DNA from: Anaerobacillus alkalilacustris
GTDB taxonomy: Bacteria > Bacillota > Bacilli > Bacillales > Anaerobacillaceae
DNA length: 40,000 nucleotides
Reading direction: 5' to 3'
NCBI RefSeq assembly: GCF_001866005.1
Contig: NZ_MLQR01000001.1
Location: forward strand, 661,106 to 701,105
Below are positions 5,005-34,400 of the stretch, piece by piece. The notes beneath the pieces were generated by a model, which worked only from the letters and a program-made list of their open reading frames with translations, had not been told where the DNA came from and made no database searches. Made by a program: the position numbers and the translations under genes. Position 1 is the first letter of the stretch. Every line of letters starts with the position of its first letter.

Positions 5005-5160
5005 GGTAAGAAGGTATAAAATTTCTTACTTAGAAACTGTCTAGCTCCAGGCGCCATCGGCTCGACCACTTCAGGCCTACTCTTTCGGCCAAAAAACGAC
5101 CGCTAGAGTAGGCCTTCCAGTGTTTGTCGCCGATAGGCGGGCGCCTTGCGCTTTTCTTAT
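5005..5160 (+). repeat. Structured intergenic repeat, short form (156 bp), copy G; the only copy in plus polarity
   Basis: GGTAAGAAGGTATAAAATTTCTTACTTAGAAACTGTCTAGCTCCAGGCGCC...GGCGCCTTGCGCTTTTCTTAT is the reverse complement of the consensus seen at 27180-27491. Central perfect 11-bp stem at 5073-5083 / 5105-5115. Confidence 0.85.
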
Positions 5161-5177
5161 GGTGGGAGGTATTTAGG

Positions 5178-6131
5178 GTGGATGTTGTAACAATAGGTGA
5201 AACAATGGTGTTATTTACACCGATAACAAACGGACCAATGAGATATGCAGGGCAATTTACACGTAGTTTTGGAGGTTCTGAATCTAATTTTGCCATTGGC
5301 TTGGCTCGTTTAGGTCATAAAGTTGGCTGGATAAGTCGAGTTGGAGATGATGAATTTGGTAGGGCGTTAATTTCTTTTGTTCGTGGAGAAGGAGTTGATG
5401 TAAGTTACGTATCGGTCGATGAAAGTGCTCAAACAGGTGTGTTTTTTAAGGAAATTAAGACAGAACAAAATATTTCGGTTTATTATTATCGGAGTGGTTC
5501 AGCAGCTTCAAGAATGTCACCTGATCTCATTGATGAAGATTATATAAAAAAAGCAAGGTATTTGCATATTTCAGGAATTACACCTGCTTTAAGTGATAGT
5601 TGTTATGAGACTGTTCATAAAGCAATTGATATAGCTAAAAAGCATAAGGTTCAGGTGATTTTTGATCCAAACGTTCGGCGCAAGCTGTGGAGTGAAGAAC
5701 GTGCCCGAGAAGTGCTTATTGAACTAGTTAGTCGCTCAGACATTGTTTTACCAGGAATTACAGAAGCTGAATTTATGTTTGGAGATAAAGGTCCTGAATT
5801 GTTAGGAAAGAAAATCTTAACCCTTGGAGCAAAGCTTGTAGTTTTGAAAGTTGGTGCTAAAGGTGCCTACTATTTTACTGATGATCATCATGAATTAGTT
5901 CCAAGTATAAAGGTGCAACATGTTGTAGATCCAGTGGGCGCAGGGGATGGTTTTGCAGCGGGATTTATATCAGGACTACTTGACGGTCTTACAACTAGAG
6001 AGTCCGTTGCTAGAGGTTGTGCGACTGGAGCAATAGTTACGATGTATCGAGGAGATTTTGAAGGTCTTCCGACAAAGCAAGAATTATTGGATTTTACTAG
6101 TGATAAGGCGGTAGATGATGTTACAAGATAA
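5178..6131 (+). CDS. PfkB-family sugar-acid kinase, 2-dehydro-3-deoxygluconokinase (KdgK)-like; could equally be a 2-ketogluconate-type kinase
   Basis: VDVVTIGETMVLF N-terminus, GGSESNFAIGLARLG, and the DPVGAGDGF nucleotide-binding motif. Start refined to GTG 5178 with a GGGAGG RBS at 5164-5169. The ORF-track extension from 5124 runs through the repeat element. Confidence 0.85.
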   Translation: MDVVTIGETMVLFTPITNGPMRYAGQFTRSFGGSESNFAIGLARLGHKVGWISRVGDDEFGRALISFVRGEGVDVSYVSVDESAQTGVFFKEIKTEQNISVYYYRSGSAASRMSPDLIDEDYIKKARYLHISGITPALSDSCYETVHKAIDIAKKHKVQVIFDPNVRRKLWSEERAREVLIELVSRSDIVLPGITEAEFMFGDKGPELLGKKILTLGAKLVVLKVGAKGAYYFTDDHHELVPSIKVQHVVDPVGAGDGFAAGFISGLLDGLTTRESVARGCATGAIVTMYRGDFEGLPTKQELLDFTSDKAVDDVTR

Positions 6132-6155
6132 TAAGTTTTAAAGAGGGTTAATTTT

Positions 6156-7052
6156 ATGGAAATATTCTTTCAGGTCGTACTTCCGGTTATCTTAGTATTC
6201 TTGATCGGATACGTGGTTCAGAAATGGAAAAAGGTTGAAATTACATCTATTTCTACGATTGCTATATATGTTATGACACCTTGTTTAGTTTTTCGAACGT
6301 TTTATTCAGCAGAACTTGATTTGCAATATTTATACATGGTGATATTTTCAGTTATTTTACTGGTGGCTATTATTTTAATAAATAAAATCTATGCCAAAGT
6401 AAAAGGACATTCTCAGTCAATTGAAAGTGGTTTAATCCTTTCAACAGCTTTTATGAACTCTGGAAATTACGGTGCCCCAATTATTTTATTTGCTTATGGC
6501 GAAATTGGTTTTGCTTACTCCGTGTCTTTTCTGGTATTACAAGCAATTATTATGAATTTTTTCGGAGTTTATTATGCTGCTCGCGGTAAAGCAAATATTA
6601 GAGTATCTGTCCGTTCCGTTTTTGAAATGCCAGCTACATATGCAGTCATCGTTGCCTTAATTTTAAAAGGATTACATTTAGAATTACCTAGTAACTTGTA
6701 TCAAACAGTTGATATTATTGCAGATGCTACAATTCCAACGGTAATGGTGATTTTAGGGATGCAGTTAGCAAATATTCAGTGGACGAAGTTTGAATGGGGT
6801 CATATTTCTTTTGGAGTGATTATCCGATTAATCATCTCACCGCTGATCGCATATGGCATCACATTATTATTCCCGTTTGATCCATTACTTGCCAAAGTGC
6901 TAATAGTCTCGGCAGCCATGCCTTCTGCAGCAACTATAGTCATGTATGCAGTTCAGTTTAATGCAAAGCCGAGATTAGTTTCTGCTATTACGTTGGTGAC
7001 GACCATTATAAGTATTTTTACGATTACTATTTTACTAGCTATTTTAGGTTAA
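6156..7052 (+). CDS. AEC (auxin efflux carrier) family membrane transporter
   Basis: 298 aa with ~10 TM segments. Typical AEC-family N-terminus (VLPVILVFLIGY) and architecture. Confidence 0.75.
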   Translation: MEIFFQVVLPVILVFLIGYVVQKWKKVEITSISTIAIYVMTPCLVFRTFYSAELDLQYLYMVIFSVILLVAIILINKIYAKVKGHSQSIESGLILSTAFMNSGNYGAPIILFAYGEIGFAYSVSFLVLQAIIMNFFGVYYAARGKANIRVSVRSVFEMPATYAVIVALILKGLHLELPSNLYQTVDIIADATIPTVMVILGMQLANIQWTKFEWGHISFGVIIRLIISPLIAYGITLLFPFDPLLAKVLIVSAAMPSAATIVMYAVQFNAKPRLVSAITLVTTIISIFTITILLAILG

Positions 7053-7065
7053 GGAGTGAGTGGTT

Positions 7066-8058
7066 ATGTATAAAGTAGTTATTACAGATTATGAATATAG
7101 TAGCTTAGCACCTGAAAAAGAAGTATTGAGAAAGATAGGAGTAGAGTTAACAGCTGTCCAATGTCAAACAGAGGAAGAGGTTATCGAGGCATGTAAAGAC
7201 GCAGATGCCTTATTAAACCAGTATGCACCAATTACGAGAAAGGTAATTGAGAAGCTTGAGAACTGTAAAGTCATTGCCCGTTTCGGAGTTGGTGTTAATA
7301 CGATTGACATAGGTGCGGCTACAGAAAAAGGTATCATCGTTAGTAATGTTACAGATTATTGTATTGATGAAGTATCAGACCACGCCTTTGCATTATTGAT
7401 AAGTGCAGCAAGGAAGGTAGTACTATTGAATAAGGAAGTAAAAAAGGGAGTTTGGAATTTTAATGTTGGTGTTCCAATTTTTCGGTTAAAAGGACGCGTG
7501 TTAGGTTTAGTTGGCTTTGGTCAAATTCCTCAAGCTCTTGCAAAAAAAGCACAAGCATTTGGACTACAAGTTAAGGCGTTTGATCCGTTTGTCCCTATAG
7601 ATGTAGCCGAAAAATTGAATGTCCAGCTACTTAGTTTAAGTGAACTATGTAAAGTATCTGATTTTATATCCGTTCATGCTCCTCTTAATGAGCATACTTG
7701 TGGAATGATCGGTGATGCACAATTTGATTTAATGAAAAAAGAGGCTTTTATTATTAATACTGCAAGAGGTGCTGTTATTAATGAAAAAGCTCTAATTAAA
7801 GCCTTACAAGAAGAGAAAGTTGCCGGTGCAGCAATTGATGTAGTTGAACAAGAACCAATAAATTTAGATAATCCTTTACTCAAAATGGAGAATGTTATTA
7901 TAAACCCACACGTTGCTTGGTATTCAGAAGAAGCACAGGAAGAGTTAAAACGAAAAACAGCTCAAAATGTTGTAGATGTACTGAGTGGTTATTTCCCAAG
8001 ATATATAGTAAACAATTCAGTAAAAGATTTACTAGATTTAAAAGTGATGTGCAAATAA
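7066..8058 (+). CDS. D-isomer-specific 2-hydroxyacid dehydrogenase, NAD(P)-dependent (glyoxylate/hydroxypyruvate/2-keto-acid reductase class)
   Basis: GLVGFGQIPQALAKKA Rossmann motif, then INTARG...D, then HVAW catalytic His. Start refined to ATG 7066, 9 nt after an AAGGAG RBS at 7051-7056. Confidence 0.85.
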   Translation: MYKVVITDYEYSSLAPEKEVLRKIGVELTAVQCQTEEEVIEACKDADALLNQYAPITRKVIEKLENCKVIARFGVGVNTIDIGAATEKGIIVSNVTDYCIDEVSDHAFALLISAARKVVLLNKEVKKGVWNFNVGVPIFRLKGRVLGLVGFGQIPQALAKKAQAFGLQVKAFDPFVPIDVAEKLNVQLLSLSELCKVSDFISVHAPLNEHTCGMIGDAQFDLMKKEAFIINTARGAVINEKALIKALQEEKVAGAAIDVVEQEPINLDNPLLKMENVIINPHVAWYSEEAQEELKRKTAQNVVDVLSGYFPRYIVNNSVKDLLDLKVMCK

Positions 8059-8067
8059 AATAATTAA

Positions 8068-8107
8068 TAAAACCAATCTGGAATTCTGGGGATTGGTTTC
8101 TTGTTTA
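8068..8107 (+). terminator. Rho-independent terminator after the dehydrogenase gene
   Basis: AAACCAATC (8070-8078) pairs with GATTGGTTT (8091-8099), followed by CTTGTTT. Confidence 0.6.
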
Positions 8108-8346
8108 TGGAATTTTTAAGAATAAAAAACTGTTATAAATGGCATAAAACGTATTGTTATTGATACAACTTTATTAAGTGAGAAGGAAATTTACTACTTT
8201 TGAAGGGGAATATTAGTTAACTGGAGAAAGTAAAATTATCAGCCAATTGCATAATTTGGGAGTTACTGAAAATATCATAAAAAAGAGGATTCCTTAAAAA
8301 AATAAAAATCATCACAACATGTACGTTGTTGTAGCGATTAGTTAGG

Positions 8347-9222
8347 GTGAGAAAATTGAAATTAATTGCAATTGATTTAGACGGAACATTATTATCTGAT
8401 GATGGAACTATTAGCCGAGAAAATAGAGAGGTGATTTATGATGCACAGAACCAGGGGAATATTATTACAATTTGCTCTGGGCGTTCCCTTCATGATACAC
8501 AAAAAATTTTATTAACTGCTGAAATTGATTGTCCAATTATTACTGGTAATGGAGCGATTGGATTTCATTCAAATAAGTTCATTCAAAGACTTGTAATACC
8601 AGATTGTGTTATTAATGAATTTCTTCCGGTGTTAGAACAAAAAGGCTATTATTACGAACTTTATACTAACCAAGGAATTACATTACTAGAAAATGGTAAG
8701 AGTAGATTAGAAAATGAGATTCTCTCAATGAAAGAAAGTGATTTGGAATTTCCGGTTGAATGGGCAAATAACGAAATAAATATTCAATTACGACAACATG
8801 GGATTAGTTATATGAAGCATTATCAAGATATCAATATATCTGAATTAGAAATATATAAAATTTTTGTCTTATCCTTTAATAAGGATTACTTGAAAGAACT
8901 CGAAAACATGCTAACCGGGAGGCAAGATCTTTCACTAACTACCTCAGGGTGGCATAAACTTGAGATCGCCCATAAAGAAGTAAGTAAAGGAAATGCATTA
9001 ACTTATATGGCTAATCATTTAGATATTCCTATGAAAGATACAGTTGCGATTGGTGATAATCTAAATGACCTTGCAATGTTCAAAGTAGCTGGAATGAGCA
9101 TAGCGATGGGTAACGGAGAAGAAGAAGTCAAAAAACAAAGTACATATACAACACGTAATTATAATGAAGACGGTGTAGCCTATGCTTTGCGGAAATACGT
9201 ATTAAAACAAGGGAATGAATAA
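8347..9222 (+). CDS. Cof-type HAD-IIB sugar phosphatase
   Basis: IAIDLDGTLL motif I, CSGR motif II, and a C-terminal GDNLNDLAMF...GNG motif. The start is uncertain: GTG 8347 or TTG 8356. Confidence 0.85.
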   Translation: MRKLKLIAIDLDGTLLSDDGTISRENREVIYDAQNQGNIITICSGRSLHDTQKILLTAEIDCPIITGNGAIGFHSNKFIQRLVIPDCVINEFLPVLEQKGYYYELYTNQGITLLENGKSRLENEILSMKESDLEFPVEWANNEINIQLRQHGISYMKHYQDINISELEIYKIFVLSFNKDYLKELENMLTGRQDLSLTTSGWHKLEIAHKEVSKGNALTYMANHLDIPMKDTVAIGDNLNDLAMFKVAGMSIAMGNGEEEVKKQSTYTTRNYNEDGVAYALRKYVLKQGNE

Positions 9223-9445
9223 TACAGATTTTATACTACAAGGGTACTATTTTTGAATTAGTACGTTCTAAACTTGAGATAACTTTGTGTAGCTGAATTT
9301 TATCCCACCCTTAAGGGGCAGTAAGACCCCAATGTCATCAGGCTAAGGATACAAATATTGGAATGTTACTTTGAGGCCACTGAAAAAGTGAATGTTTTTG
9401 AAAAACGAATGATTATAGGGGGGCAAAAATGTCGCCCTAACCCTC

Positions 9446-9484
9446 AAACGAGCCTTAGAAGCGATTCTAGAGGCTCGTTTTTTG
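9446..9484 (+). terminator. Orphan rho-independent terminator, ~225 nt downstream of the Cof gene with no ORF in between
   Basis: AAACGAGCCT (9446-9455) pairs with AGGCTCGTTT (9471-9480), followed by TTTTG. Confidence 0.55.
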
Positions 9485-9723
9485 AATATTATTTTTCAGA
9501 TAAAAAAATTTGGACTTTTTCAGCAGTCCGTGTTACTTTCTGCTTCTTTTTTTGTAATGAGCTACTATCAAAGTCCCGTAAAATAATCATTGAAATATAG
9601 AGAAATAACTTGACTTTTGAAAAAACGCCTAACAATCGATTTTGTGTGCCTGCTGACGTATGTTCGTTAAAGTTTGGTGTAAACCAAATGGCAGTAAATA
9701 AAAAGAACACCGTCATCGAAAAC

Positions 9724-10053
9724 GTCCCAGTGTGGCCGATCACCCTCTCAGGTCGGCTACGCATCGTCGCCTTGGTAAGCCGTTACCTTACCAACTAGCT
9801 AATGCGACGCGGGCCCATCCTGTAGTGTTAGGTAAACCCAACTTTCACTTTAGAACCATGAGGCTCCAAAGATTATCCGGTATTAGCTTCGGTTTCCCGA
9901 AGTTATCCCAGTCTACAGGGCAGGTTGCCCACGTGTTACTCACCCGTCCGCCGCTAACTCTCATAAAGCAAGCTTTAATTGAGTTCGCTCGACTTGCATG
10001 TATTAGGCACGCCGCCAGCGTTCGTCCTGAGCCAGGATCAAACTCTCCATAAA
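9724..10053 (-). rRNA. rrs: 16S rRNA gene, 5' fragment only (~330 nt), truncated at 9724
   Basis: The reverse complement reads TTTATGGAGAGTTTGATCCTGGCTCAGGACGAACGCTGGCGGCGTGCCTAATACATGCAAGTCGAGCG...TGAGAGGGTGATCGGCCACACTGGGAC. Identity to 16S then stops: the expected TGAGACACGGCCCAGACTCC is replaced by GTTTTCGATGACGG. Confidence 0.9.
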
Positions 10054-10181
10054 AGTGTTTGATAAAGCTCAAAATAAAACATTGACGAGATATTTACTAT
10101 CTCTTTTAATTCGCTTGGCTGTGTGTTCAGTTTTCAAAGAACATTCTTCTAATTTCGACGTCACCCGACAGCGACTTAATT

Positions 10182-10210
10182 AATATATCATATCAACAAC
10201 TCACTGTCAA
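10182..10210 (-). promoter_or_regulatory. rrn promoter P2 (sigma-A)
   Basis: Minus strand: TTGACA (10210-10205), 17-nt spacer, TATATT (10187-10182). It is followed by a typical Bacillus rRNA leader (CTTTGAAAACTGAACAC...). Confidence 0.6.
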
Positions 10211-10261
10211 CAATTATTAAAAAACATTTTTTTGTAACTTTCGTTTAAAGCGACAAGTAAT

Positions 10262-10290
10262 AATATAACATCATTAACCTATATTATCAA
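10262..10290 (-). promoter_or_regulatory. rrn promoter P1 (sigma-A)
   Basis: Minus strand: TTGATA (10290-10285), 17-nt spacer, TATATT (10267-10262), with an A/T-rich UP-like tract upstream. Confidence 0.5.
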
Positions 10291-10361
10291 CAACTTTTTA
10301 AAAAAACATTATTGATGAACTCATTATTTTTTCATCACACTATTTTTATAATAATAAAATC

Positions 10362-10515
10362 GTAAGCGCCACAGCTCTATACATATGCTGCATGTAGCTA
10401 ATCAACGAAAGATTTCAAGAGGTAATTGAAGTCAGAAACCTGACTGAAGTGATCGAACCGATGGCACCTGGAGCTAGACAGTTTCCAAGTTAGAAAGTTA
10501 TAAATTCTGATACTG
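10362..10515 (-). repeat. Structured intergenic repeat, long-form variant, copy B
   Basis: Shares GCTGCATGTAGCTAATCA...ATTGAAGTCAGAAACCTGACTGAAGTGATCGAACCGATGGCACCTGGAGCTAGACAGTTTCCAAGTTAGAAAGTTATAAATTCTGATACTG with copies at 18274, 27180 and 32046. Confidence 0.8.
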
Positions 10516-10551
10516 CAAAAAAGAGCAGACCGAAAATCGATCTGCTCTTTT
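10516..10551 (-). terminator. lysS rho-independent terminator
   Basis: AGAGCAGA (10522-10529) pairs with TCTGCTCT (10541-10548). The T run on the minus strand is the complement of 10517-10522. Confidence 0.8.
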
Positions 10552-10559
10552 AACACCAA

Positions 10560-12068
<1,509 letters not shown>

Positions 12069-12232
12069 CTATATTTGTAAGTTCTCTGCCTTACCAAAGT
12101 AGTGTATATGTATAATTGCGCTATTACTCTTTATATCCATTTATCACGAACAGTATAAGGTTCGCTATTAGAAATCGTATCAAAACCGAGGGCGCTCCTT
12201 AGTTTTTGAGATAATGGTGAACTACTCAATCT

Positions 12233-12265
12233 ATGAAGAAAAACTGCCCGCATCTAGCTGGCAGT
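12233..12265 (-). terminator. Rho-independent terminator-like hairpin between dusB and lysS
   Basis: AACTGCC (12241-12247) pairs with GGCAGTT (12259-12265). The minus strand continues TTTTTCTTC. Confidence 0.6.
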
Positions 12266-12280
12266 TACTAATCTCAGAGG

Positions 12281-12309
12281 TATTATAGGTTACATAGCGA
12301 AGATTGTCA
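12281..12309 (-). promoter_or_regulatory. Consensus sigma-A promoter immediately after the dusB stop codon
   Basis: Minus strand: TTGACA (12309-12304), 17-nt spacer, TATAAT (12286-12281). Confidence 0.6.
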
Positions 12310-12311
12310 AA

Positions 12312-13313: not shown

Positions 13314-13338
13314 GGATGCCACCTCCAATCTATATGAA

Positions 13339-14388: not shown

Positions 14389-14391
14389 TTT

Positions 14392-15219: not shown

Positions 15220-15223
15220 ACGG

Positions 15224-18126: not shown

Positions 18127-18273
18127 ACTCCAAATAATACTTTTTATAATTTAGTTTCTCTGACTTGTCCTATTTTTATTTTATCACTAATCTATATAAG
18201 ACATAAAGAAGTTGATAAATATCATTGAATAATAAAAGTTTTTAATTATCTTTATCGCCTATAAAACCATATC

Positions 18274-18506
18274 AAGAAGAGCGCAAGCGCCTTGGTCACG
18301 AGCAGCTGCTCCTGTGCCACTCCGTTTGCTCAAGAGCAATTGTTTTTCCGTGCGACGAGTAAGCGCAGGAGCAAAGCTGCATGAAGCTATTCAGAGGCGT
18401 TATTCATGTAGTTATTGAAGTCAGAAACTTGACTGAAGTGACCGAGCTCGTAGGTTGCTTGCGCTAGACAGTTTCCAAGTTAGGAAATTTATAAATTCTG
18501 ATTATA
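18274..18506 (-). repeat. Structured intergenic repeat, composite 233-bp copy C (short-form outer arms plus long-form inner modules)
   Basis: AGCGCAAGCGCCTTGGTCACGAGC at the lower-coordinate (plus-strand 5') end. Internal TTTTCCGTGCGACGAGTAAGCGCAGGAGCAAAGCTGCATGAAGC and ATTGAAGTCAGAAACTTGACTGAAGTGACCGAGCTCGTAGGTTGCTTGCGCTAGACAGTTTCCAAGTTAGGAAA. Confidence 0.85.
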
Positions 18507-18538
18507 ACAAAAAGCAGCCCAAGAAGGACTGCTTTCAA
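18506..18538 (-). terminator. cysK rho-independent terminator
   Basis: AAAGCAGCCC (18511-18520) pairs with GGACTGCTTT (18526-18535) with one mismatch. T run on the minus strand. Confidence 0.7.
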
Positions 18539-21463: not shown

Positions 21464-21612
21464 TAAGAAAAGTACGGGCGCTGCAGCTCTAGACATAAAA
21501 AGTAATTTCCCATCTGTGTCTTCTAGCATAGCTTTGAAGCAGTGGCTTGTGCCATGAGTAATCACTTGCACTTGAAAGCTTTGTAACTTTAAAAATTTTA
21601 TGCTTTCTTATC
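21464..21612 (-). repeat. Structured intergenic repeat, divergent copy F
   Basis: Conserved ends: TAAGAAAAGT...GGGCGCTGCAGCTCTAGACAT (compare copy B, GCGCCACAGCTCTATACAT) and ...AAAATTTTATGCTTTCTTATC (compare 27470-27491). The interior is diverged. Confidence 0.5.
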
Positions 21613-21685
21613 TTTTAAAACCGTTAAAACTTTTTCAAAATTAACTTAGTTTACTTTCGATATAAAGCCTTAGCAAAATGAAAAG

Positions 21686-21720
21686 TAGAAAAAAGGTGTC
21701 CTAGTGTAGACACCTTTTTA
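21686..21720 (-). terminator. ftsH rho-independent terminator
   Basis: AAAAGGTGTC (21691-21700) pairs with GACACCTTTT (21709-21718). T run on the minus strand. Confidence 0.8.
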
Positions 21721-23734: not shown

Positions 23735-23805
23735 CCTTTACCTCCTCCCGCTGACAAATAAAGCTTAGATAATATTACCATAAAAGTATAGTTTTTCACA
23801 ATCAA

Positions 23806-24348: not shown

Positions 24349-24525
24349 GACTAAAAAATAACCCCCTAAAATAAATGTAAAATAAAAACATTTCACCAAG
24401 TTCCCAATGCTGTAGTAGCCTTAAGTTTTCTTACCAGTATACCTTTTGGCCTTCATAAAGAGTAATAAGGATAACCCCATAGCAATGCTTTTATCATTCA
24501 ACTTAGTATGTAAACTTATATAACT

Positions 24526-26353: not shown

Positions 26354-26360
26354 CTAGCTT

Positions 26361-27116
26361 TTACAGAAATAATGTTATTGCCAAGGCAATACCCGTGGCA
26401 ATAGATAAGGATGTGATGGTTGCTTCAGCTCCGCGACTAACCCCAGCAACAAGATCTCCACTCATTAAATCTCTTACCGCGTTAGTTAATGGAACTCCAG
26501 GGACTAAAGGCATTAACGTACCAATAATTATTTGATTTAAGTTGGTACCAAGTCCAAAGTAAACGAGACCAATCGCCACGGTTCCACCCATAAAAGCAGC
26601 TATAAACTCAGCAAAGAACTTCACCTTTAAATATCTTTCAACCTCGATCAGACATACGCTTGCCGTTATCCCAGCAATAAAAGCAGGAAGGGAGTCTTTG
26701 ATACCACCACCAAATAAATAGGAAAATCCCCCCCCTGCAATTCCAGAAGCTATATGTATAAGCCAAATTGGATATGCAAGCCTTGCACTTGCGATATTTT
26801 TAAGCTCTAAATAGGCTTGTTCAGTAGTTAGGTTACCAGTAACAAATTCACGAGAAACTTGATTGACAAGTGATACCTTGTTTAAATCATAATTCCTGTC
26901 ATCAATACGAATCATCTGCATAATGTCGCCTCGCCCATCTTCTTCAAAAGAGAGAAAAATACCTGTTGTTGTAACAAAGCTATGTACATTTTTTAAATTA
27001 GCAGCATTAGCCATTCGCTCTAATGTTTCTTCTACACGATATGTCTCTGCCCCGTATGTAAGCATTATTTCACCCGCAAGCAAACACACGTCCATCATTT
27101 GATCAGCCTTGCCCAT
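26361..27116 (-). CDS. Threonine/serine exporter (ThrE) family, large subunit (YjjP/DUF1212-like)
   Basis: 251 aa. The N-terminal soluble part (GAETYRVEETLERM) followed by TM segments is typical of ThrE/YjjP. AGGGAGG RBS upstream. Confidence 0.7.
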   Translation of the reverse strand: MGKADQMMDVCLLAGEIMLTYGAETYRVEETLERMANAANLKNVHSFVTTTGIFLSFEEDGRGDIMQMIRIDDRNYDLNKVSLVNQVSREFVTGNLTTEQAYLELKNIASARLAYPIWLIHIASGIAGGGFSYLFGGGIKDSLPAFIAGITASVCLIEVERYLKVKFFAEFIAAFMGGTVAIGLVYFGLGTNLNQIIIGTLMPLVPGVPLTNAVRDLMSGDLVAGVSRGAEATITSLSIATGIALAITLFL

Positions 27117-27179
27117 TCCAATCCTCCCTTATTTAAGAAAATGTAGAATTGTTATGTAATGATTAAACACCCTACGCCA

Positions 27180-27335
27180 CTAAGAAAAGCGCAAGCGCCT
27201 TGGTCACGAGCGAAAGTCACTGGAAGGCCTTTGACAGAAGCCGCTCTTTGGCTTCCGAAAAGGACTGAAGTGACCGAGCTCGTAGGCGCTGAAGCTAGAC
27301 AGTTTCCAAGTTAGAAATTTATTAATTCTGATACT
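27180..27335 (-). repeat. Structured intergenic repeat, short form, copy A1 (first unit of a tandem dimer)
   Basis: 27181-27287 is identical to 27337-27443 (107 nt, period 156). Its tail is ...GCTGAAGCTAGACAGTTTCCAAGTTAGAAATTTATTAATTCTGATACTG. Confidence 0.9.
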
Positions 27336-27491
27336 GTAAGAAAAGCGCAAGCGCCTTGGTCACGAGCGAAAGTCACTGGAAGGCCTTTGACAGAAGCCGC
27401 TCTTTGGCTTCCGAAAAGGACTGAAGTGACCGAGCTCGTAGGCTGCTTGCGCTAGACAGTCTCCGAGTTAGAAATTTTATGCTTTCTTACC
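27336..27491 (-). repeat. Structured intergenic repeat, short form, copy A2 (second unit of the tandem dimer)
   Basis: Same 107-nt core as A1. Its tail is ...TGCTTGCGCTAGACAGTCTCCGAGTTAGAAATTTTATGCTTTCTTACC. Confidence 0.9.
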
Positions 27492-27508
27492 TTGTTAAAA
27501 AAACAATT

Positions 27509-28471
27509 CTACATCATTTGTCCAAATAAGTATAGGATATATGCTAATAGAAGGAAAGAGGCAAATAAAAATGTTTCGATAAGTCCATTTGATTTTTCTC
27601 CCCTTGAGTCTTTGTTTGTAGTTGTTGGTTTTTTAGGTTGTTTCATCGAGGACTTGGTAAAAGATGACTTACTTTTACTAATTGCACTAATAACATCTTT
27701 TTTCATTAGCTGCGCATTGCTGTATTTACCCTGTAATGCGTTTAAAAGAACAAAATCATACTGCTTTAAAGTAGATTGCTTTTCAATTTTTTCCTTCAGC
27801 TGCTTCAAGCCTTCGCCGTTTTTTTCAAAACGCTTAGGGTAACATATATTGATGATGATCATAGCGACACTAAAGAGATCATACGTAATCTCAGCTCTAC
27901 GTGTTCCTAAACCCCAGTAACCACGATCAAAAAACTCCGTATACTCCTTAATTGATCGCCCTAATAATGTTGTGCCACCTACATCAATCCAACGCACTCG
28001 CGCTGGAGGTCCGATAACAATTAAATTATCAGGCTTTAAATCACCAAACACCCAACCTGCTTGATGTAAACGATCTAAATCACCAAGAAGTTGTACAATA
28101 AGAATTCCAACCCACTCGCTTCCTTTCCCTTGCATAAAAGGGATAAGTCCTTGTCCCTTTAAATATTCCATGGCATAAAAAGGAAAGGTCCCTTCTTGAG
28201 TTACCCAGTCATCGACATCGATTAAAGAAGGCCCAAGGATTTGCCCTTGGACCTTGGAAAAATGCTTGAGGACATTTACCTCTGAAGTAATTGCCATACT
28301 GTTTAAACCTATTTTCAAAGCGACCAACCCTTTTGGCGACTCTGCTAAGTAAACAGAACCTGTCGCTCCGTTACCAAGCTCTTTTACTATTTTGTAAGGC
28401 TGCTTGTGCCATTTCCCTAAAATTTTTGTATTAGGAGATAAATTACATACCTGACTCTTCTTGATACTCAT
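27509..28471 (-). CDS. yabT: Membrane-anchored Hanks-type Ser/Thr protein kinase, YabT-like
   Basis: GNGATGSVY glycine loop, ALKIG lysine, FGDLKPDN catalytic loop, and a C-terminal TM segment. Follows yabS as in B. subtilis. Confidence 0.85.
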   Translation of the reverse strand: MSIKKSQVCNLSPNTKILGKWHKQPYKIVKELGNGATGSVYLAESPKGLVALKIGLNSMAITSEVNVLKHFSKVQGQILGPSLIDVDDWVTQEGTFPFYAMEYLKGQGLIPFMQGKGSEWVGILIVQLLGDLDRLHQAGWVFGDLKPDNLIVIGPPARVRWIDVGGTTLLGRSIKEYTEFFDRGYWGLGTRRAEITYDLFSVAMIIINICYPKRFEKNGEGLKQLKEKIEKQSTLKQYDFVLLNALQGKYSNAQLMKKDVISAISKSKSSFTKSSMKQPKKPTTTNKDSRGEKSNGLIETFLFASFLLLAYILYLFGQMM

Positions 28472-29171
28472 CAGAAATCAGACTCCTTCTACTTTTTCTT
28501 GGAAACATGGAGATAGCTTCTTGTAATGCCGGACCTGTAGGTGTAATACCACCTAGAGATAGCTTATGGAATACACCAGTTAGAGATTCAATTTTCGGTG
28601 TCCAACCGACTAATTTGTCAACAGCTTTTCGTTTCCCCGGAAATGAATACAATGAAAAACGATTTGTACCTACTCTCGAATTGAGACTAATCGATAGATC
28701 AGTTAGAGCTTCTTGAACCATTACTAGTTTATTTTTCATACTAGCACTAGTGTCAACTAATATTAACAGCTCTAAGTCCATTGTTTCACCTAGTTCATCA
28801 ACGACTTCCATAACCTGTCCTCTTTTTTCCGGTGGCAGATCTTCTATTTCTTGGTTTTGCCCTAGTATTTGGGTAAGCTCTCTATTAACAACCCCGTGAA
28901 TAGTTTGTGTCATAGCTTTTCTTGTCACCATTTGAACAGTCTTTGCTAACTGCTTTGCATAAACAATTTGACTAATTCCACCACCACTCATAGCTATTGA
29001 TTTAATTTCTTCTATACCTTGTTCACTGATTTGGTCATCTTCAACTACACCAATAACATTAACAGTTATTCCTTCCTCTTTAGCCAAGGCCGCAATAGCA
29101 ATTGGATCTTCCCCTTGATTTGAGCACCCATCGGTTAATAATAGTATTTGCTTTAACGTTCCTTTTCCCAT
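28443..29171 (-). CDS. yabS: von Willebrand factor A domain protein, YabS-like
   Basis: LLLTDGCSNQG and LILVDTSASM (DxSxS MIDAS) motifs. Start refined to MGKGTLKQ (29171) with a GGAGGGG RBS 9 nt upstream. Overlaps the yabT start by 29 nt. Confidence 0.8.
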   Translation of the reverse strand: MGKGTLKQILLLTDGCSNQGEDPIAIAALAKEEGITVNVIGVVEDDQISEQGIEEIKSIAMSGGGISQIVYAKQLAKTVQMVTRKAMTQTIHGVVNRELTQILGQNQEIEDLPPEKRGQVMEVVDELGETMDLELLILVDTSASMKNKLVMVQEALTDLSISLNSRVGTNRFSLYSFPGKRKAVDKLVGWTPKIESLTGVFHKLSLGGITPTGPALQEAISMFPRKSRRSLISDEYQEESGM

Positions 29172-29329
29172 AAGCTGTTTCCCCTCCATTTTTACGAATG
29201 TTACCATCATTCACTTTTTTAGGAGGGAATATACTTTAATATTCAGAATTTAAGTATTAAATGGTATCTTACAAACTTTAACAACGATTCACCCACCTTC
29301 TCATCTTATTCTGGAGTGGCTTTAAAAGC

Positions 29330-31828
29330 CTACAGTGCTTTCTTCTTTCTATTTAATCCAACTGTCTGATACATAGGTATTGTCGCCCACCTCGGTAAAT
29401 TTCTTTTCACATTCGCTACAACAACAGTCATATCATCATCTATTTTATTATCCCCTGTACGAATTACTTGTTCAATTATTAAATCAGCGACTTCTTGTGG
29501 TTCTGTTGCTTTAATTTCTTTTATGATACGCTTCATCCAAGCTTCACTATTCTCAACATGCTTTGGACCATCAAAAATTCCATCACTCATCATAATTAAC
29601 AAATCTCCAGCCTTTAATTGCTCACTGACAACATCGACATCAAATTCATTTATAATTCCCATTGGTAGATTACTAGCTTCTACCATAAAAACTTTATCTC
29701 CCCTTTTTATAAAACTAGGAGTAGAGCCGATTTTCAGGAATTTTGCAGAAGCATCTTGCAAATCAATCATCGCTAAATCCAATGTAGAGAAAATTTCATC
29801 GGTAGAACGTAAAGATAGAACTGAGTTCACAGACTTAATAGCCACTGTTTCTTCTATGCCAGACTGTAATATATTTTGAAGAAGCTGCAATGTTTCATTA
29901 CTTTCTAAATGAGCTCTCTCACCATTTCCCATTCCGTCACTTATTGCAACGGCATATTTACCAGCCCCAATCTCCATCGTTGAGTAACTATCACCAGAAA
30001 TCCATGCACCACCTTTAGCAACTGTAGCAATACCAGTCTCCACAACAAATTGTTTAGCAGAACCGAATGATACATTCGTATAACCGTTAGGGTAGTAGTT
30101 TATATCAACTTTCTTTACTACGATCGTTTCTTCTAAAATATGAGACAACATCGGGGCAACGATTTTTTCACATTCCCCATGTTCATTTGTAGGTACACTA
30201 ATTTCAATATCTACATTCCCCTCATCAAGTTGGAATATCTCTACATGTCCAATATCTACCCCTGCATCACGAAGCGCATCTAGTATTTGCTCCTCTTGAA
30301 TTTGAAGATTTTCCCTTTCTTTTTGTATTTCTTTCGCAAAATCGCCCATTACCTTTGAAACTCCTAAAAGTTGGTCTGCAACAAGTTTTCTACTTTCTAG
30401 TAACTGCCTTTTTAATTTTTTTCCTGCTTGATACTGATTTAATTCATGTTGAATCACATGAATTACTTTCTCCGCCTTCAAACAATATCTTTCCCAATCA
30501 GCTTTTAACCGTTTATTTACTTGGTGGTCGTTTTCGTAACTAAGCATAATTTCTTGCATATGATTATACGTTTTATCAAAATTTTTCGTCCAACACTGCT
30601 CCTTTCGAAAACACATTTGACATGTTTTTTCCGTAACGTTACTTAAAAAGTAGTCAACTTCTCGCTCTGGGTCTTCCTCATCAGTATCTACTTGGACGTT
30701 AGAAAAACTATTTGATAATGTTTGAAATAGGGTTGAGAATTGTTCAACCTTTCCAGCTGTTACATCTCTAAATTTCCGTAAATATTGTTGTTGCTCCTTC
30801 CAATATTCTGCAGTACCTGGAATATACTTAGAAATTCTCATAATTAAATTTCGTGGGGTTATTATAAATATAAGTATAGCTACTAGTGATTCCATTACGG
30901 TTAATGTAATGGTTCCACTCCCGTCTCCATATAAGCCTATTAATAGTGTTCCAACTAAGAGTCCAATACCAACGCCTATTTTTTTCCCATCTTTTAATAG
31001 GCCACCTAACAAACCTGAGAATGCTAATAAACTCATTTGGTAAAGACTTGCAACACTCGCTAAACTTAAAATTAGCCCTGTTACCACTCCAACTGTTGAA
31101 CCGATAGCAGCTCCACCGACAAAAGCAAAAATTAACACTAAGTATCTAGCTAATATATTTTCAGCTGCCATACCGTAAAAAATCCAACCGATCGTACCTG
31201 TCATAACTGAAGCAAGTAAAATAATTAAACAAATGATTTCTTCATTTTTCAAAGAATGTTTGCGCTTTCTCTCTGTAATAATTGGAACACTTTGAATAAA
31301 AATCATCGTCAGAATAAAACTTAGACCACCCTCAACAACCGATACTAACCAAACATAATTTGTAATTGTTCCTTCTAAAACATACGCAAGCAACGTTTTC
31401 GAAATAAAAATAGCAGCAAAGACTAAAAATGGTAATAACCTTGACTTGTTGTCATATAATCTATTAAATAAGCGATATAAAAATAAAAAAGTTAAAATAG
31501 AAACAAAAGCATAACCACCATTAATAGGATCAATCGTGATTGCACCGGCTATTAAAGCTAACATAGCAATAGTAGCCTTTTCACGTTTTAATAGAAAGAT
31601 TGCTGCAAAAAACGGCAAGATAAAAGGTAGCATTTCTGATAAAATGATTGCCCGTCCAAGTAAAAATCCAATAATGAAAATTAAAAATCCCCATTTATAG
31701 AAGATAAGTGAAAATAGTTTGCCAAATCGATCCGTCTCACTTTCCTTTAGGTAGTTATCCCCATTCATTGAATTTGACAGTACCGTTCCTCTCATTGGTT
31801 CAACTGCTTTCAGTACTTTTCGAAACAC
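29330..31828 (-). CDS. spoIIE: Stage II sporulation protein E (PP2C phosphatase for SpoIIAA-P)
   Basis: 832 aa. About 10 N-terminal TM segments, a central domain and a C-terminal PP2C domain (ISDGMGNGERA, LIMMSDG). GTG start with a GGTGGTGG RBS. Confidence 0.95.
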   Translation of the reverse strand: MFRKVLKAVEPMRGTVLSNSMNGDNYLKESETDRFGKLFSLIFYKWGFLIFIIGFLLGRAIILSEMLPFILPFFAAIFLLKREKATIAMLALIAGAITIDPINGGYAFVSILTFLFLYRLFNRLYDNKSRLLPFLVFAAIFISKTLLAYVLEGTITNYVWLVSVVEGGLSFILTMIFIQSVPIITERKRKHSLKNEEIICLIILLASVMTGTIGWIFYGMAAENILARYLVLIFAFVGGAAIGSTVGVVTGLILSLASVASLYQMSLLAFSGLLGGLLKDGKKIGVGIGLLVGTLLIGLYGDGSGTITLTVMESLVAILIFIITPRNLIMRISKYIPGTAEYWKEQQQYLRKFRDVTAGKVEQFSTLFQTLSNSFSNVQVDTDEEDPEREVDYFLSNVTEKTCQMCFRKEQCWTKNFDKTYNHMQEIMLSYENDHQVNKRLKADWERYCLKAEKVIHVIQHELNQYQAGKKLKRQLLESRKLVADQLLGVSKVMGDFAKEIQKERENLQIQEEQILDALRDAGVDIGHVEIFQLDEGNVDIEISVPTNEHGECEKIVAPMLSHILEETIVVKKVDINYYPNGYTNVSFGSAKQFVVETGIATVAKGGAWISGDSYSTMEIGAGKYAVAISDGMGNGERAHLESNETLQLLQNILQSGIEETVAIKSVNSVLSLRSTDEIFSTLDLAMIDLQDASAKFLKIGSTPSFIKRGDKVFMVEASNLPMGIINEFDVDVVSEQLKAGDLLIMMSDGIFDGPKHVENSEAWMKRIIKEIKATEPQEVADLIIEQVIRTGDNKIDDDMTVVVANVKRNLPRWATIPMYQTVGLNRKKKAL

Positions 31829-31862
31829 TTATATCCACCACCCGTTTTTTTATCGTGTTTCT

Positions 31863-31896
31863 ATTATAAGCAGATCTTTCATTCAATTTTTGTCAA
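31863..31896 (-). promoter_or_regulatory. spoIIE promoter with overlong spacer, plus Spo0A-box-like sequences upstream
   Basis: Minus strand: TTGACA (31896-31891), 22-nt spacer, TATAAT (31868-31863). The B. subtilis spoIIE promoter is known for a ~21-bp spacer and Spo0A dependence. 0A-box-like heptamers (AGTCGAA, TTAGACA, TTTGACA) occur between 31890 and 31940. Confidence 0.5.
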
Positions 31897-32045
31897 AACA
31901 ACAGAGCTTGTCTAAAAAAGTGTTCGACTCGTTTCTAGTAAGCTAGTCAAAAAAACACTCAAAGATTGCACAATAATTTTAGTATATGTAAAAGCATCTC
32001 GAATTGTACTACAAAACCAATTCGAAAAGGCGAAATTTGGAAAAA

Positions 32046-32241
32046 GGTTTTCGTGCGACGAGTAACCGCAGGAGCAATTGGTTTTCGTGCGACGAGTAAC
32101 CGCAGGAGCAAAGCTGCGTGAAGTTAATCGACGAAGGATCTCATGCAGTGATTGAAGTTAGTTGCTTGTCTGAAGTGACGAAGCTCGTAGGCGCCTGGAG
32201 ATAGACAGTTTTTAAGCAAAGAAATTTTATTCTTTCTTAGC
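32046..32241 (-). repeat. Structured intergenic repeat, long form, copy D, with an internal 34-bp tandem duplication
   Basis: GGTTTTCGTGCGACGAGTAACCGCAGGAGCAA occurs at 32046 and 32080. It is followed by AGCTGCGTGAAG...ATTGAAGTTAG...CTGAAGTGACGAAGCTCGTAGGCGCCTGGAGATAGACAGTTTTTAAGCAAAGAAATTTTATTCTTTCTTAGC. Confidence 0.8.
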
Positions 32242-32243
32242 TT

Positions 32244-32280
32244 AAAACTAAAACACCCTTCTTTCCGAAGGGTGTTTTAT
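32244..32280 (-). terminator. yabR rho-independent terminator
   Basis: AAACACCCTT (32251-32260) pairs with AAGGGTGTTT (32269-32278). T-rich on both sides. Confidence 0.85.
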
Positions 32281-32326
32281 TATATATTAAAGATATTTAT
32301 TATGTTCAATTGTCAAATGCAGCAAG

Positions 32327-32800
32327 TTAGCCTCGTCTAGCACCTCGACCTCCACGTTTTGATTCTGTGTTACGCTTTAAAGAAGTAAGTCTTTCCTCAC
32401 TATCTTTTAAAAAGCGATTCATTTTATCCTCAAAAGAAAGGGATGGACGAGCTTGGTTATTCCTATTGCCATTATTACGAGATCCATATTGTTTGTTTCC
32501 TGGTCTTTCTTGATCACGATCACGTGGCGGCCTTTTTTGAGGTCTTGGTTGCTCTTCTTGTGGACGCTCCTTAGCCTTTCTTATTGAAAGTCCAATTTTA
32601 CCGTCCTTTTCAACTGCAATAACTTTAACCTCAACTTCGTCACCAACTTTTAATATTTCATTGATGTCTTTAACATAATTATCCGCTACCTCACTAATGT
32701 GAACAAGCCCAGTAATACCACCTGGCAGCTCAATAAATGCTCCAAAATGGGTGATACCTGTTACCTTCCCTTGTAACTTGCTGCCTACTTCGATTGACAT
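32327..32800 (-). CDS. yabR: S1 RNA-binding domain protein YabR
   Basis: MSIEVGSKLQGKVTGITHFGAFIELPGGITGLVHISE S1 fold with a basic, disordered C-terminal tail. Start refined to ATG 32800 (AAGGAGG upstream). Confidence 0.85.
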   Translation of the reverse strand: MSIEVGSKLQGKVTGITHFGAFIELPGGITGLVHISEVADNYVKDINEILKVGDEVEVKVIAVEKDGKIGLSIRKAKERPQEEQPRPQKRPPRDRDQERPGNKQYGSRNNGNRNNQARPSLSFEDKMNRFLKDSEERLTSLKRNTESKRGGRGARRG

Positions 32801-32870
32801 GAAAAAAATGCTCCTCCTTAAAAACATAATTATAATACTATCTAATTATACATGATAAAAAAAACAAGTG

Positions 32871-33260
32871 TCAATCAGCAGTAATAGTTGGGAGTTTAAA
32901 GATAATCTCTCCTGGTTTGGTTAAGAAATAATCTCTTCTAGCAATTTCTGCAATGTACTCAAGACTATTTAAATTTTCTATTTCGTCTATGAGATCTCTC
33001 TCCACTAACTGTAACTGAACTAGTTCATTCTCTAGATATTGTTTTTTCTCTATTTTCTGACTAAGAACAGTATGTTGTGATTGTAGAGTTATTACTGTAG
33101 CTACCATTACAGTCGCAACAAATAAACCTAAGGCACTAAGGCGACGAACAAGTCCTTTATTACTTATTGACTTCTGCTCTATTTTCTTATCATGCTGTTC
33201 ATTGTAATGAGAGTTGAGCTCTCTTACATTCCTTTGTTGTGCGCTATTCATCCTCATCAC
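32871..33260 (-). CDS. divIC: Cell division protein DivIC (FtsB/septum formation initiator family)
   Basis: Single TM segment followed by a coiled coil (LENELVQLQLVERDLIDEIENL) and IAEIARRDYFLTKPGEIIF. The exact start among the GTG/ATG cluster is uncertain. Confidence 0.85.
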   Translation of the reverse strand: MMRMNSAQQRNVRELNSHYNEQHDKKIEQKSISNKGLVRRLSALGLFVATVMVATVITLQSQHTVLSQKIEKKQYLENELVQLQLVERDLIDEIENLNSLEYIAEIARRDYFLTKPGEIIFKLPTITAD

Positions 33261-33286
33261 CCTTTTACGACTCTTATATTATAAAC

Positions 33287-33874
33287 TTACTCTTTTTTAT
33301 TAAGCCGTTGTTTTATATAGTTCTTTATTTTGCTTAAAAATCCTAGTTTACTTTTATATTTTTTGATTTTTTCCTTCGGCAAAAGCCTCCAAATTCCTTT
33401 ACCAATCCAAATGAAAGGTGTATAAATGACTTTTAAAAGGAAAAATATGACTGATATTGTAAAACTTATTATCATCATACACAGCTTGTATAAAAGTTTC
33501 AACAACTCTTTCGTAGGATTTATAATAAGCATAAATAAAGCAGCTTTACAAAATTTATAGGTTTTAATAATTGTTGAGATAAGTGCTTCTAGAATCTTTA
33601 GATATATACTAAATAAAAGAGCTCGATAGCAGGAATAACCACACAACAGAGCAAGCAAAATATAAAATCTCATTTCCCCTTCATTTACTTGCAATAAAAT
33701 ATAAAATACAATAAGCCCTTGTAAAACCCAAAACAAACTATCATTAATGACTGTAATCCATTTTTTCCACTTACGACCTCTAATTAAGCGGCTATAGGTG
33801 TCGATAGCCATACCTAGCCATCCACCCATAGCCACCATAATAAGCATGGTTTGCAGTTGAACTGTTAGACTCAC
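33287..33874 (-). CDS. yabQ: Spore cortex biosynthesis membrane protein YabQ
   Basis: 195-aa multi-TM protein. Its start overlaps the yabP stop by 4 nt, in the conserved yabP-yabQ-divIC order. Confidence 0.8.
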   Translation of the reverse strand: MSLTVQLQTMLIMVAMGGWLGMAIDTYSRLIRGRKWKKWITVINDSLFWVLQGLIVFYILLQVNEGEMRFYILLALLCGYSCYRALLFSIYLKILEALISTIIKTYKFCKAALFMLIINPTKELLKLLYKLCMMIISFTISVIFFLLKVIYTPFIWIGKGIWRLLPKEKIKKYKSKLGFLSKIKNYIKQRLNKKE

Positions 33875-34179
33875 TTGAATAACTTCCCAAAGAAGCCTTT
33901 GGCCTTATCATTCTGTTGCTGATCTAAATATACAAGGTCGTAAATTTTTCCTTCAATAGAAACAATACCTTGATCTACATCTAGGTTTTTCATGTGAAGA
34001 TTGTGCCCTCGAATTGCTAAAAAGCCTAATTCTGTTTCCATTAAGAACTCTTCGTTATCAAAGCTTTCCACTTGCTTTACTCCTGTAATATCTAAGTGTT
34101 TTCTCCCCCGCATAGTAATATTATGTTCTTTCATCTTTTTATCTCTCCCCATTGGAGTGCCGAATTCATACTGATCCAT
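33871..34179 (-). CDS. yabP: Sporulation protein YabP
   Basis: HNITMRGRKHLDITGVKQVESFDNEEF...IEGKIYDL is the characteristic YabP family sequence. GAGGAGG RBS 8 nt upstream. Confidence 0.9.
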   Translation of the reverse strand: MDQYEFGTPMGRDKKMKEHNITMRGRKHLDITGVKQVESFDNEEFLMETELGFLAIRGHNLHMKNLDVDQGIVSIEGKIYDLVYLDQQQNDKAKGFFGKLFK

Positions 34180-34261
34180 ACTAAATTCCTCCTCGTATCC
34201 TCTATTTACGCTTATATTTATGTAAACGAGTTAAAGAATAGAACAAGCCTTTTTTCAAAGC

Positions 34262-34400
34262 GGTGTTTTGTAAAAAGTGTAACCGTAGAAGCAGGTTTTG
34301 TGTGACGAGTAACCGTGCATAAAGGCAATCAGAGATGTATTTCATATAGTTATTAAAGCAGTTGCTTGACTGAAATGACTGACCTAGTAGCATTTCTCTC
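34262..34400 (-). repeat. Structured intergenic repeat, degenerate long-form copy E
   Basis: GTTTTGTAAAAAGTGTAACCGTAGAAGCA and GGTTTTGTGTGACGAGTAACCGTGCATAAAG are a decayed version of the 34-bp module pair. These are followed by ...TTATTAAAGCAGTTGCTTGACTGAAATGACTGACCTAGTAGC. Confidence 0.5.

Follow-up and report, generated by a model that had tools for sequence, protein, structure and literature searches.

A probable mobile foldback DNA element positioned behind intrinsic terminators in Anaerobacillus and other Bacillaceae

Class C group II introns reportedly home behind intrinsic terminators. As retroelements built on a ribozyme, these introns measure ~0.7-2 kb, contain conserved domains and in most cases encode a reverse transcriptase. 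Here we describe a family of much more compact, non-coding repeats in a 40,000-nucleotide stretch of the Anaerobacillus alkalilacustris genome (contig NZ_MLQR01000001.1, positions 661,106 to 701,105; hereafter the window), and compare it with this and other described systems. A 190-bp repeat of Bacillus subtilis is said to occur in about ten origin-proximal copies of uniform orientation and conserved predicted structure, and the present family may be related to it. SPRITE repeats, reported in 2011 from S. pneumoniae and S. mitis only, are ~105 bp long and 28% GC, with AAAA/TTTT ends and an 18-bp duplex followed by a U-rich tract; their target duplication was left undetermined and they are presumed parasitic (PMC3049150). 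The bcr1 repeat, reported as specific to the B. cereus group, is ~155 bp long, has 5-bp direct repeats and forms a cruciform of two independent stem-loops (Delihas 2011, PMC3184786), and bcr repeats are regarded as a special kind of MITE (miniature inverted-repeat transposable element; PMC3184786, PMC3446304). Elements derived from IS200/IS605 and the REP/RAYT repeats (Di Nocera et al. 2013, PMC3733652) provided a further comparison.

The family is represented in the window by eight copies of a modular repeat, six of them clear and two decayed (c21464 and c34262), and its units measure 75-330 bp overall. A sequence-only reading of the window had listed eight copies and offered two explanations, a terminator-targeting non-autonomous mobile element and a transcribed structured RNA that insulates or regulates adjacent operons. 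All eight copies lie within a few bases of where that reading put them, as judged from a repeat finder (families D1-D6 and I1-I3) and from reading of the stretches, and the conserved blocks it described are present (families D1 and D6); we refined the copy edges by alignment and by comparison with empty sites. Our results favor the first explanation over the second. Seamless filled and empty sites in genomes of 97% identity, empty outgroups and an excess of hairpins with T-runs on the 5' side of copies make it probable that the repeat is a non-autonomous mobile DNA element of a foldback or MITE-like kind, one that homes to terminators, mimics them and produces no target duplication.

Comparison with a sister genome reveals an element-sized, seamless and recent gain without target duplication. 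The flanking DNA of A. alkalidiazotrophicus (GCA_001866055.1, loci L010 and L016) is ~97% identical to the window, and for that reason it was taken as the sister. In the cysK-pabB spacer the window carries c18274 (18273-18506, minus strand), an intact, lineage-specific long-type insertion that scores 64 bits with our covariance model and is bounded by TATAATCAGAA...GCGCTCTTCTTG with no target site duplication, whereas the sister is empty (GCTGCTTTTTGT^ATATGG). The yabT-thrE spacer is likewise empty in the sister (GTGTTTTTAA^GTGGCGTAGG) and filled in the window by a tandem pair, CAAGGTAAGAAAGC...GCGCTTTTCTTA, with a duplication of at most 1 nt, which is ambiguous. The upstream member of this pair, c27336 (27337-27494, minus; 148 bits), lies past the yabT stop codon, and the downstream member, c27180 (27181-27336, minus; 145 bits), abuts its 3' tail. 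No copy was found, at E values up to 1, in the orthologous 20-kb regions of the outgroups Anaerobacillus sp. CMMVII and Halalkalibacterium halodurans (L017 and L019), which makes recent insertion in the window's lineage the best reading of the two clean differences. Bacillaceae IKA-2 (L018) has an inverted copy of its own in the cysK-pabB spacer, which is an independent insertion. Recent gain also fits the 107 nt of 100% identity shared by the tandem pair (family D2) and the short-read contigs that stop inside copies. Logan contigs from run SRR4934940, which are 100% identical to the window, end in this way at 10482, 18302, 34286 and ~5031, which suggests that the family is abundant throughout the genome.

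At other sites the two genomes differ by deletions or carry different variants. Between lysS and the rRNA operon the sister has two complete tandem elements (~650 nt), and the window has a fusion lacking ~500 internal nt: c10362 (10350-10516, minus; 37.6 bits), a chimera made up of a long-type 5' half and the 3' end of another element. At yabR-spoIIE the window holds a 3'-truncated long copy, c32046 (32046-32243, minus; family D3), and the sister a minimal element of 75 nt; the 5' modules of the two differ at several positions although the flanks are near-identical. An internal 34-nt tandem duplication in c32046 (32048-32129, GGTTTTCGTGCGACGAGTAACCGCAGGAGCAA) contains a motif that is also seen in long-type copies of other genomes. 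At yabO-yabP, c34262 (about 34262-34400, minus; nhmmer E = 3e-8) has lost its 5' module through a 29-nt deletion, and the sister site has a more intact copy that retains this module, with ATAATCAGAATTTATAAATTTCTAACTTGGAAACTGTCTAGC. The degenerate c21464 (21464-21614, minus) has a weak covariance model score (25 bits, E = 0.028); it retains the termini AAGATAAGAAAGCATAAAA...CTTTTCTTA, and its membership is backed by a sister copy that still has GAAAGCTGTCTAGCGCAA / CTGTCTAGCGCAA. In the ftsH-coaX spacer the sister also has an extra insert of ~130 nt (L016, ~8766-8896) with hairpins of its own, CCCCCACCTCTAAGCGTAGCGTAGGTGGG and GTTCTAGCGAAGCTAGAAC, which is missing from the window between about 21639 and 21640 and could represent either a further small repeat or an upstream copy in decay.

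The target is strand-specific: an element lies 5-11 nt downstream of a hairpin and T-run, which is either the terminator of a gene or the 3' end of a resident copy. A simple detector, requiring a hairpin plus T-run within 55 nt and applied to each side of 29 copies, found this structure on the 5' side of 18 and on the 3' side of 2 (Fisher p = 1.6e-5), with a median gap of 7 nt from hairpin end to element. Several sites that the detector missed, for example L008 and the yabO site, are evident terminators in which the loop is larger or there are mismatches. In three of the 18 cases the target is a preceding copy's 3' end, GGCGCTTGCGCTTTTCTTA, and tandem copies begin directly past GCGCTTTTCT(T/G/A)A, so that tandem arrays are explained by the resident 3' end serving as a target.

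The parking behind terminators remarked on by the sequence-only reading is seen at six of the seven loci in the window. The terminator of the HPr-like gene (PF00381, PTS-HPr; 4961-4996, plus; AAAAAGCGGTATGTACATTAGTGTACCGCTTTTC) has a hairpin and T-run that stop 9 nt short of c5005 (5002-5159, plus), an intact short-type copy and the only one on the plus strand (163 bits, E = 3e-31). The lysS terminator (10517-10551, minus; AAAAGAGCAGATCGATTTTCGGTCTGCTCTTTTTTG, then immediately CAGTATCAGAA) is the target of c10362, the cysK terminator (18509-18537, minus; AAAGCAGTCCTTCTTGGGCTGCTTTTTGT) that of c18274, the yabR terminator (32249-32279, minus; a 13-pair stem in a terminator scan) that of c32046, and the yabO terminator (34415-34448, minus; AAAAAGGAGATGACCTCGGTCACTCCTTTTTC) that of c34262. 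The ftsH terminator (21690-21719, minus; a 12-pair stem in the same scan) is followed by c21464 at a distance of ~75 nt. The seventh locus, past yabT, has only a weak AT hairpin with T7.

A fixed polarity relative to the genes had also been claimed. This holds within the window, where each of the eight copies points the same way as the gene upstream of it, every element except c5005 reading on the minus strand, but it fails in relatives, where three loci contain inverted copies (L018, L024 and L013). The inverted copies of Bacillaceae IKA-2, at cysK, and of Anoxybacillus amylolyticus, at a DUF1540 gene (L024), each have a stop codon on one side and a bidirectional terminator on the other, and hence sit still directly after a hairpin and T-run on their own strand. 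As the inverted copies obey the same rule, polarity is set by the target and not by transcription or replication, and the fixed polarity in the window, no rule of its own, follows from the targeting of a hairpin and T-run that are strand-specific. A rule based on replication direction was ruled out, since the IKA-2 copy and the copies in a Geobacillus rRNA spacer oppose the presumed direction of replication. A single target rule accounts for four features: copies park just 3' of terminators, their polarity relative to genes appears fixed, they form tandem arrays, and a few rare ones are inverted upstream of bidirectional terminators.

Read in its own orientation, a unit begins with a variable start of 5-6 nt, in which CAAGG, CAGTAT and TATAAT are each common to subsets of copies. 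An AT-rich leader follows, TAAGAAAG.ATAAAATTTCTAACTTGGAA (also given as TAAGAAAG.ATAAAATTTC), which forms a small hairpin of its own (TAAGAAAG-N7-TTTCTTA). Next come an invariant box, ACTGTCTAGC, at the foot of the stem, a long imperfect GC-rich hairpin, and a tail, GCGCTTTTCTTA, whose 3' end resembles an intrinsic terminator; in c5005 a terminator scan flags this end at 5139-5153. Both the small 5' hairpin and the 3' GC hairpin are followed by TTTCTTA. The tip of the long hairpin tolerates large insertions, giving rise to a short type of ~157 nt (c5005, c27180 and c27336) and a long type, seen in c18274, c32046 and the 5' half of c10362, that measures 200-330 nt and whose extra tip sequence includes the motif CGACGAGTAAC/GCGCAGGAGCAA. 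The hairpin proposed from the sequence is real: the short type has minimum free energies of -64 and -67 kcal/mol, with z = -5.1 for c27336 and z = -5.5 for c5005 (-66.6 kcal/mol). The copies were also correctly seen as GC-rich islands, at 0.37-0.50 GC against 0.25-0.38 in their flanks and 0.36 in the window. The proposed terminal inverted repeat needs qualification, because the complementarity of TAAGAAAG and CTTTTCTTA exists but is short (9-10 nt, (G)TAAGAAAGC / GCTTTTCTTA(C)) and lies 5-6 nt inside the 5' end. Blocks left unpaired, namely ACTGTCTAGC at the stem foot, CACTTCAG/CTTCCAGTG and GCCGATAGG, are kept across genera and are candidate sites of protein recognition.

How such an element might move can be sketched from these features. 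Movement would be catalyzed in trans by an enzyme that the element does not encode, and this enzyme would recognize hairpins of folded (probably single-stranded) DNA, and not a target of fixed sequence. The likeliest type would be a transposase that makes no target duplication, such as an HUH/Y1 enzyme (IS200/IS605 or RAYT-like). Copies do seed further copies at their own terminator-like 3' ends. The minimal 75-nt sister element folds, together with its surroundings, as the native terminator, a small AT hairpin and a 10-bp GC hairpin followed by UUUUCUUA, from which it follows that each insertion adds a predicted terminator-like structure. As a side effect, each terminator that is occupied may gain a further terminator-like hairpin behind it. 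Effects on expression are plausible given that c5005 ends ~10 nt ahead of the ribosome binding site of the next gene and that the tandem pair occupies an 80-nt junction between yabT and thrE. It is tempting to go further, although we hold this only tentatively, and to see here an undescribed class of mobile element that reads the structure of a hairpin and T-run, inserts seamlessly in one orientation and seeds itself by mimicking terminators, with either a transposase or recombinase of uncharacterized mode or a replication or repair activity of the host as its enzyme.

A classical MITE, that is, a deletion derivative of a DDE-type insertion sequence (IS) moved by cut-and-paste through its terminal inverted repeats, with an IS66-like element as the candidate parent, appears unlikely. 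The repeats are small, non-coding, structured, present in multiple copies and variable among strains, as MITEs are; their termini are short and imperfectly complementary, and IS66, IS4 and IS1380 transposases occur in one genome that bears the element. IS66 and other DDE families generate target duplications, however, and at the two clean sites we find duplications of 0 nt and at most 1 nt. IS66 ends begin GTAAG, and a match to such ends was rejected for want of a target duplication. Moreover, the complementary blocks do not reach the 5' end, where 5-6 extra nt leave them subterminal, insertion is strand-specific and beside a structure, and no IS with the same ends was found in the ~0.5 Mb of DNA sampled. 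The absence of target duplication thus argues against DDE cut-and-paste and toward HUH/Y1 or another duplication-free recombinase.

Covariation in the hairpin bears on the alternative that these are functional structured RNA modules, maintained by selection as back-up terminators, insulators, 3'-UTR stabilizers or a small RNA, with position and polarity reflecting function. A consensus of 25 pairs, drawn from a 14-sequence alignment, has 91.6% of its cells paired, compared with 25-46% when partners are slid by 1-3 columns. Changes on both sides occur in 13 of the 25 pairs, and the double-change cells number 48 against 16.5 ± 3.0 in shuffles, a value that none of 500 shuffles reached. The stems therefore covary, as the sequence-only reading had proposed to check. 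Only four cells are G-U, which makes the covariation almost entirely Watson-Crick, and the two strands fold about equally well (means of about -54 and -56 kcal/mol, the antisense being the more stable in 9 of 14 copies). These two observations together are what one would expect of complementarity maintained in the DNA, or on both strands, and not of an RNA read from a single strand. The strong folding and clear covariation, the unpaired motifs conserved across genera, the terminator-like 3' end and the co-orientation of all eight window copies with genes would each suit an RNA module. Against it stand the presence/absence differences between genomes of 97% identity, with orthologous sites empty in congeners; the truncated, chimeric and tandem copies; the copies antisense to a transcription unit, including those in the Geobacillus 16S-23S spacer; and the position of most copies behind a terminator, where little transcription is expected. 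With the scarcity of G-U pairs and the equal folding of both strands, these features make an RNA insulator or regulator an improbable account of sequences that are gained, lost, truncated and arrayed in tandem.

Spread that needs no enzyme, through template switching or gene conversion between terminator regions by way of microhomology in the T-run and hairpin, is improbable as well. Donor and target both have a hairpin with a T-run, and the variable starts CAAGG, CAGTAT and TATAAT recur in subsets of copies. The different variants at yabR-spoIIE in the two sister genomes suggest conversion among copies. At both clean sites, however, the target T-run plus 2 nt and the element tail (TTTTCTTA/TTCTTG) are intact and the junctions lie outside the shared microhomology. 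Slippage deletion at TTG predicts CTTTTTGATATGG, but CTTTTTGTATATGG is observed; microhomology-mediated deletion was accordingly rejected, as it fails to reproduce the empty-site sequences. The idea that the repeats are eroded class C group II introns is very improbable and was rejected, for although the target type and the strand-specific orientation are alike and the A. amylolyticus record contains a group II intron reverse transcriptase, no Rfam group II model (Intron_gpII, group-II-D1D4) matches at E up to 5, the termini differ and lack a GUGYG 5' end, the 75-330 nt elements have no domain V-like hairpin, and the intron examined is neither beside an element nor behind a terminator.

Several observations weigh against the interpretation as a terminator-homing mobile element. 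The tetranucleotides at the left junction vary (TTAA, TTGT, TTTG, CTTA and GTAC), which is a misfit to the fixed target of canonical IS200/IS605 elements. An excess of copies between terminators and the promoters that follow would also arise under purifying selection alone, but such selection would leave the constant spacing of 5-11 nt and the inverted cases unexplained. Cross-genus identity of 72-83% and the conserved loop motifs could reflect a function for the host as well. The fully clean filled and empty pairs number only two, seamless excision is distinguished from insertion only through the outgroups, and the sample comprises ~30 copies from short loci rather than whole genomes. In addition, the autonomous partner carrying the same termini that the sequence-only reading had suggested was not found in the ~0.5 Mb sampled, nor was an adjacent transposase or a Y1 gene flanked by copies. 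Neighboring open reading frames (ORFs) in nine loci are housekeeping genes and not transposases, and the TnpA, TnpB and IscB loci of A. amylolyticus do not match the element.

One A. amylolyticus locus (L021) has a solitary sequence resembling the 5' module, AAAGATAAGAAAGAAAATTGC (46790-46825, minus; also given as AAAGATAAGAAAG). It comes directly behind a terminator, ~270 nt upstream of a TnpB gene. A left end common to the repeat and the TnpB element was considered and set aside, since the TnpB element appears to start ~100 nt further on, with TTAC and a hairpin of its own. The solitary sequence is probably a remnant copy and less likely to be linked to the IS605-family element.

Searches of databases and literature gave no match to the family. 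The sequence-only reading could assign no Rfam family, and in Rfam release 15 no family matches any copy by gathering score or at E up to 5; the Geobacillus locus L013 and locus L014 match only rRNA, tRNA and T-box models. PLSDB plasmid searches with c27336 and c18274 returned nothing relevant. Matches elsewhere in plasmid records proved to be chromosomal fragments, and they included no B. cereus-group plasmid. A phage search and pattern scans of IMG/VR and JGI metagenomes gave nothing. No convincing match to a sigma-A promoter, outward or internal, was seen in the element. Full-text literature searches that included the literal motifs found no description, though they covered few subscription journals and an earlier description under another name is possible.

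The family extends across several genera. In a pattern scan of one genome per species, the matches listed included Pseudalkalibacillus decolorationis, Pseudalkalibacillus sp. A8, Anaerobacillus arseniciselenatis, an Anaerobacillus metagenome-assembled genome (MAG) and an uncultured Bacillaceae MAG; altogether the hosts are Anaerobacillus, Pseudalkalibacillus, Anoxybacillus, Geobacillus and MAGs of two uncultured Bacillaceae. Over its whole length c5005 is 80-83% identical to the copies of A. arseniciselenatis and the MAGs, in flanks that are unrelated. With a covariance model built from 14 copies (six genomes or more), the copies in the window reach 25-163 bits at E values of 3e-31 to 0.03, apart from c34262, whose decay puts it below the reach of the model; a scan with this model gave 32 matches in 478 kb. 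A. amylolyticus has four copies in 258 kb, and Geobacillus subterraneus has tandem copies within and upstream of an rRNA operon.

The G. subterraneus copies (L013, 3870-4118 and 5708-5859) are GC-rich versions of the repeat that lack the AT-rich leader and are antisense to the rRNA; some are in tandem within the 16S-23S spacer and others lie just upstream of the 16S gene. The records that contain the G. subterraneus and A. amylolyticus copies are filed as plasmids but look chromosomal. NZ_CP051163.1 (pBsrF12, L013) holds an rRNA operon and a tRNA cluster, and NZ_CP015439.1 (pDSM15939_1, L020-L025) holds pheST, thrS, polA, dnaE, leuS, ribosomal protein genes and a prophage.

The window itself is 36% GC and comes from the genome of a spore-forming member of the Bacillaceae; its HslO clusters with the HslO proteins of A. 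alkalilacustris and A. alkalidiazotrophicus. From 10.5 kb onward it is a conserved origin-proximal run of minus-strand genes that includes lysS, dusB, folKB, sul, pabABC, cysK, hslO, coaX, ftsH, hpt and tilS and continues with thrE, yabT/S, spoIIE, yabR, divIC, yabQ/P/O, mazG and spoVT. Of a 16S rRNA gene the window holds no more than the first ~358 nt (9649-10050, minus; promoter region 10060-10350). Past ...CACACTGGGAC the partial gene gives way to unrelated DNA with plus-strand genes, and the sister contig ends within the same 16S. This looks like a join made in assembly across an rRNA operon, or else like a genuine rearrangement, and the left 9.6 kb may not truly adjoin the rest of the window. 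In that left part, a gene resembling 6-phosphogluconate dehydrogenase is split into adjacent ORFs of 212 and 80 amino acids (595-1490, plus), and may be a frameshift or a pseudogene.

Two mechanically called ORFs, 5030-5296 (minus) and 5124-6131 (plus), cross c5005, and the latter, of 335 amino acids, starts at a TTG inside the element. The sugar-kinase gene more likely starts at a GTG near 5187, after a GGGAGG ribosome binding site. Since ORF calls run through it, the repeat can mislead gene callers.

These elements reshape the 3' regions of core genes such as lysS, cysK, ftsH, yabR and yabO. Where they land in an operon junction (yabT-thrE) or just upstream of a ribosome binding site (the kdgK-like gene), they may change termination and read-through. 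In Anaerobacillus, Anoxybacillus and Geobacillus they interrupt short-read assemblies and lengthen intergenic spacers. They can also be used as strain-level markers. A compact DNA element of this kind would be a sign of an enzyme able to read folded DNA at gene ends, and, if that enzyme were found, seamless structure-guided insertion might be of use in genome engineering.

Set beside the described systems, the family resembles each in part. As with SPRITE, its units are small, non-coding and interspersed, run from an A-rich 5' end through a long duplex to a T-rich 3' end, and are enriched near the 3' ends of genes. It differs in being 37-50% GC, modular at 75-330 bp, spread over several Bacillaceae genera and documented at seamless empty sites; for SPRITE, terminator homing, tandem self-targeting and empty sites have not been shown, and the two have no sequence relationship. 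With bcr1 it has in common an intergenic location in Bacillaceae, presence/absence variation among strains and compensatory changes. By description, the lack of direct repeats, the single long hairpin and the different host genera set it apart from bcr1. The likeness to IS200/IS605-derived (PATE-like) elements and REP/RAYT repeats lies in oriented insertion without target duplication, seamless excision or insertion, hairpin ends, conservation at the level of a DNA hairpin, and a short conserved box by the foot of the stem, here CTAG within ACTGTCTAGC. Unlike IS200/IS605, the family has no fixed target of 4-5 nt before its left end, and unlike REP sequences, which are palindromes of 20-40 nt tagged with GTAG or CGTC, its units are 75-330 nt long and carry a CTAG box. 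Class C group II introns are similar in their target, a terminator stem-loop with a T-run, in their strand specificity and in leaving no target duplication, but the present elements have neither ribozyme domains nor a reverse transcriptase, and the resemblance is one of working and not of membership. In summary, the family is real, recently active and present in multiple genera; it is akin in kind to the MITE and REP-like foldback repeats, and is best described as homing to terminators, a behavior for which class C group II introns are otherwise the main known example.

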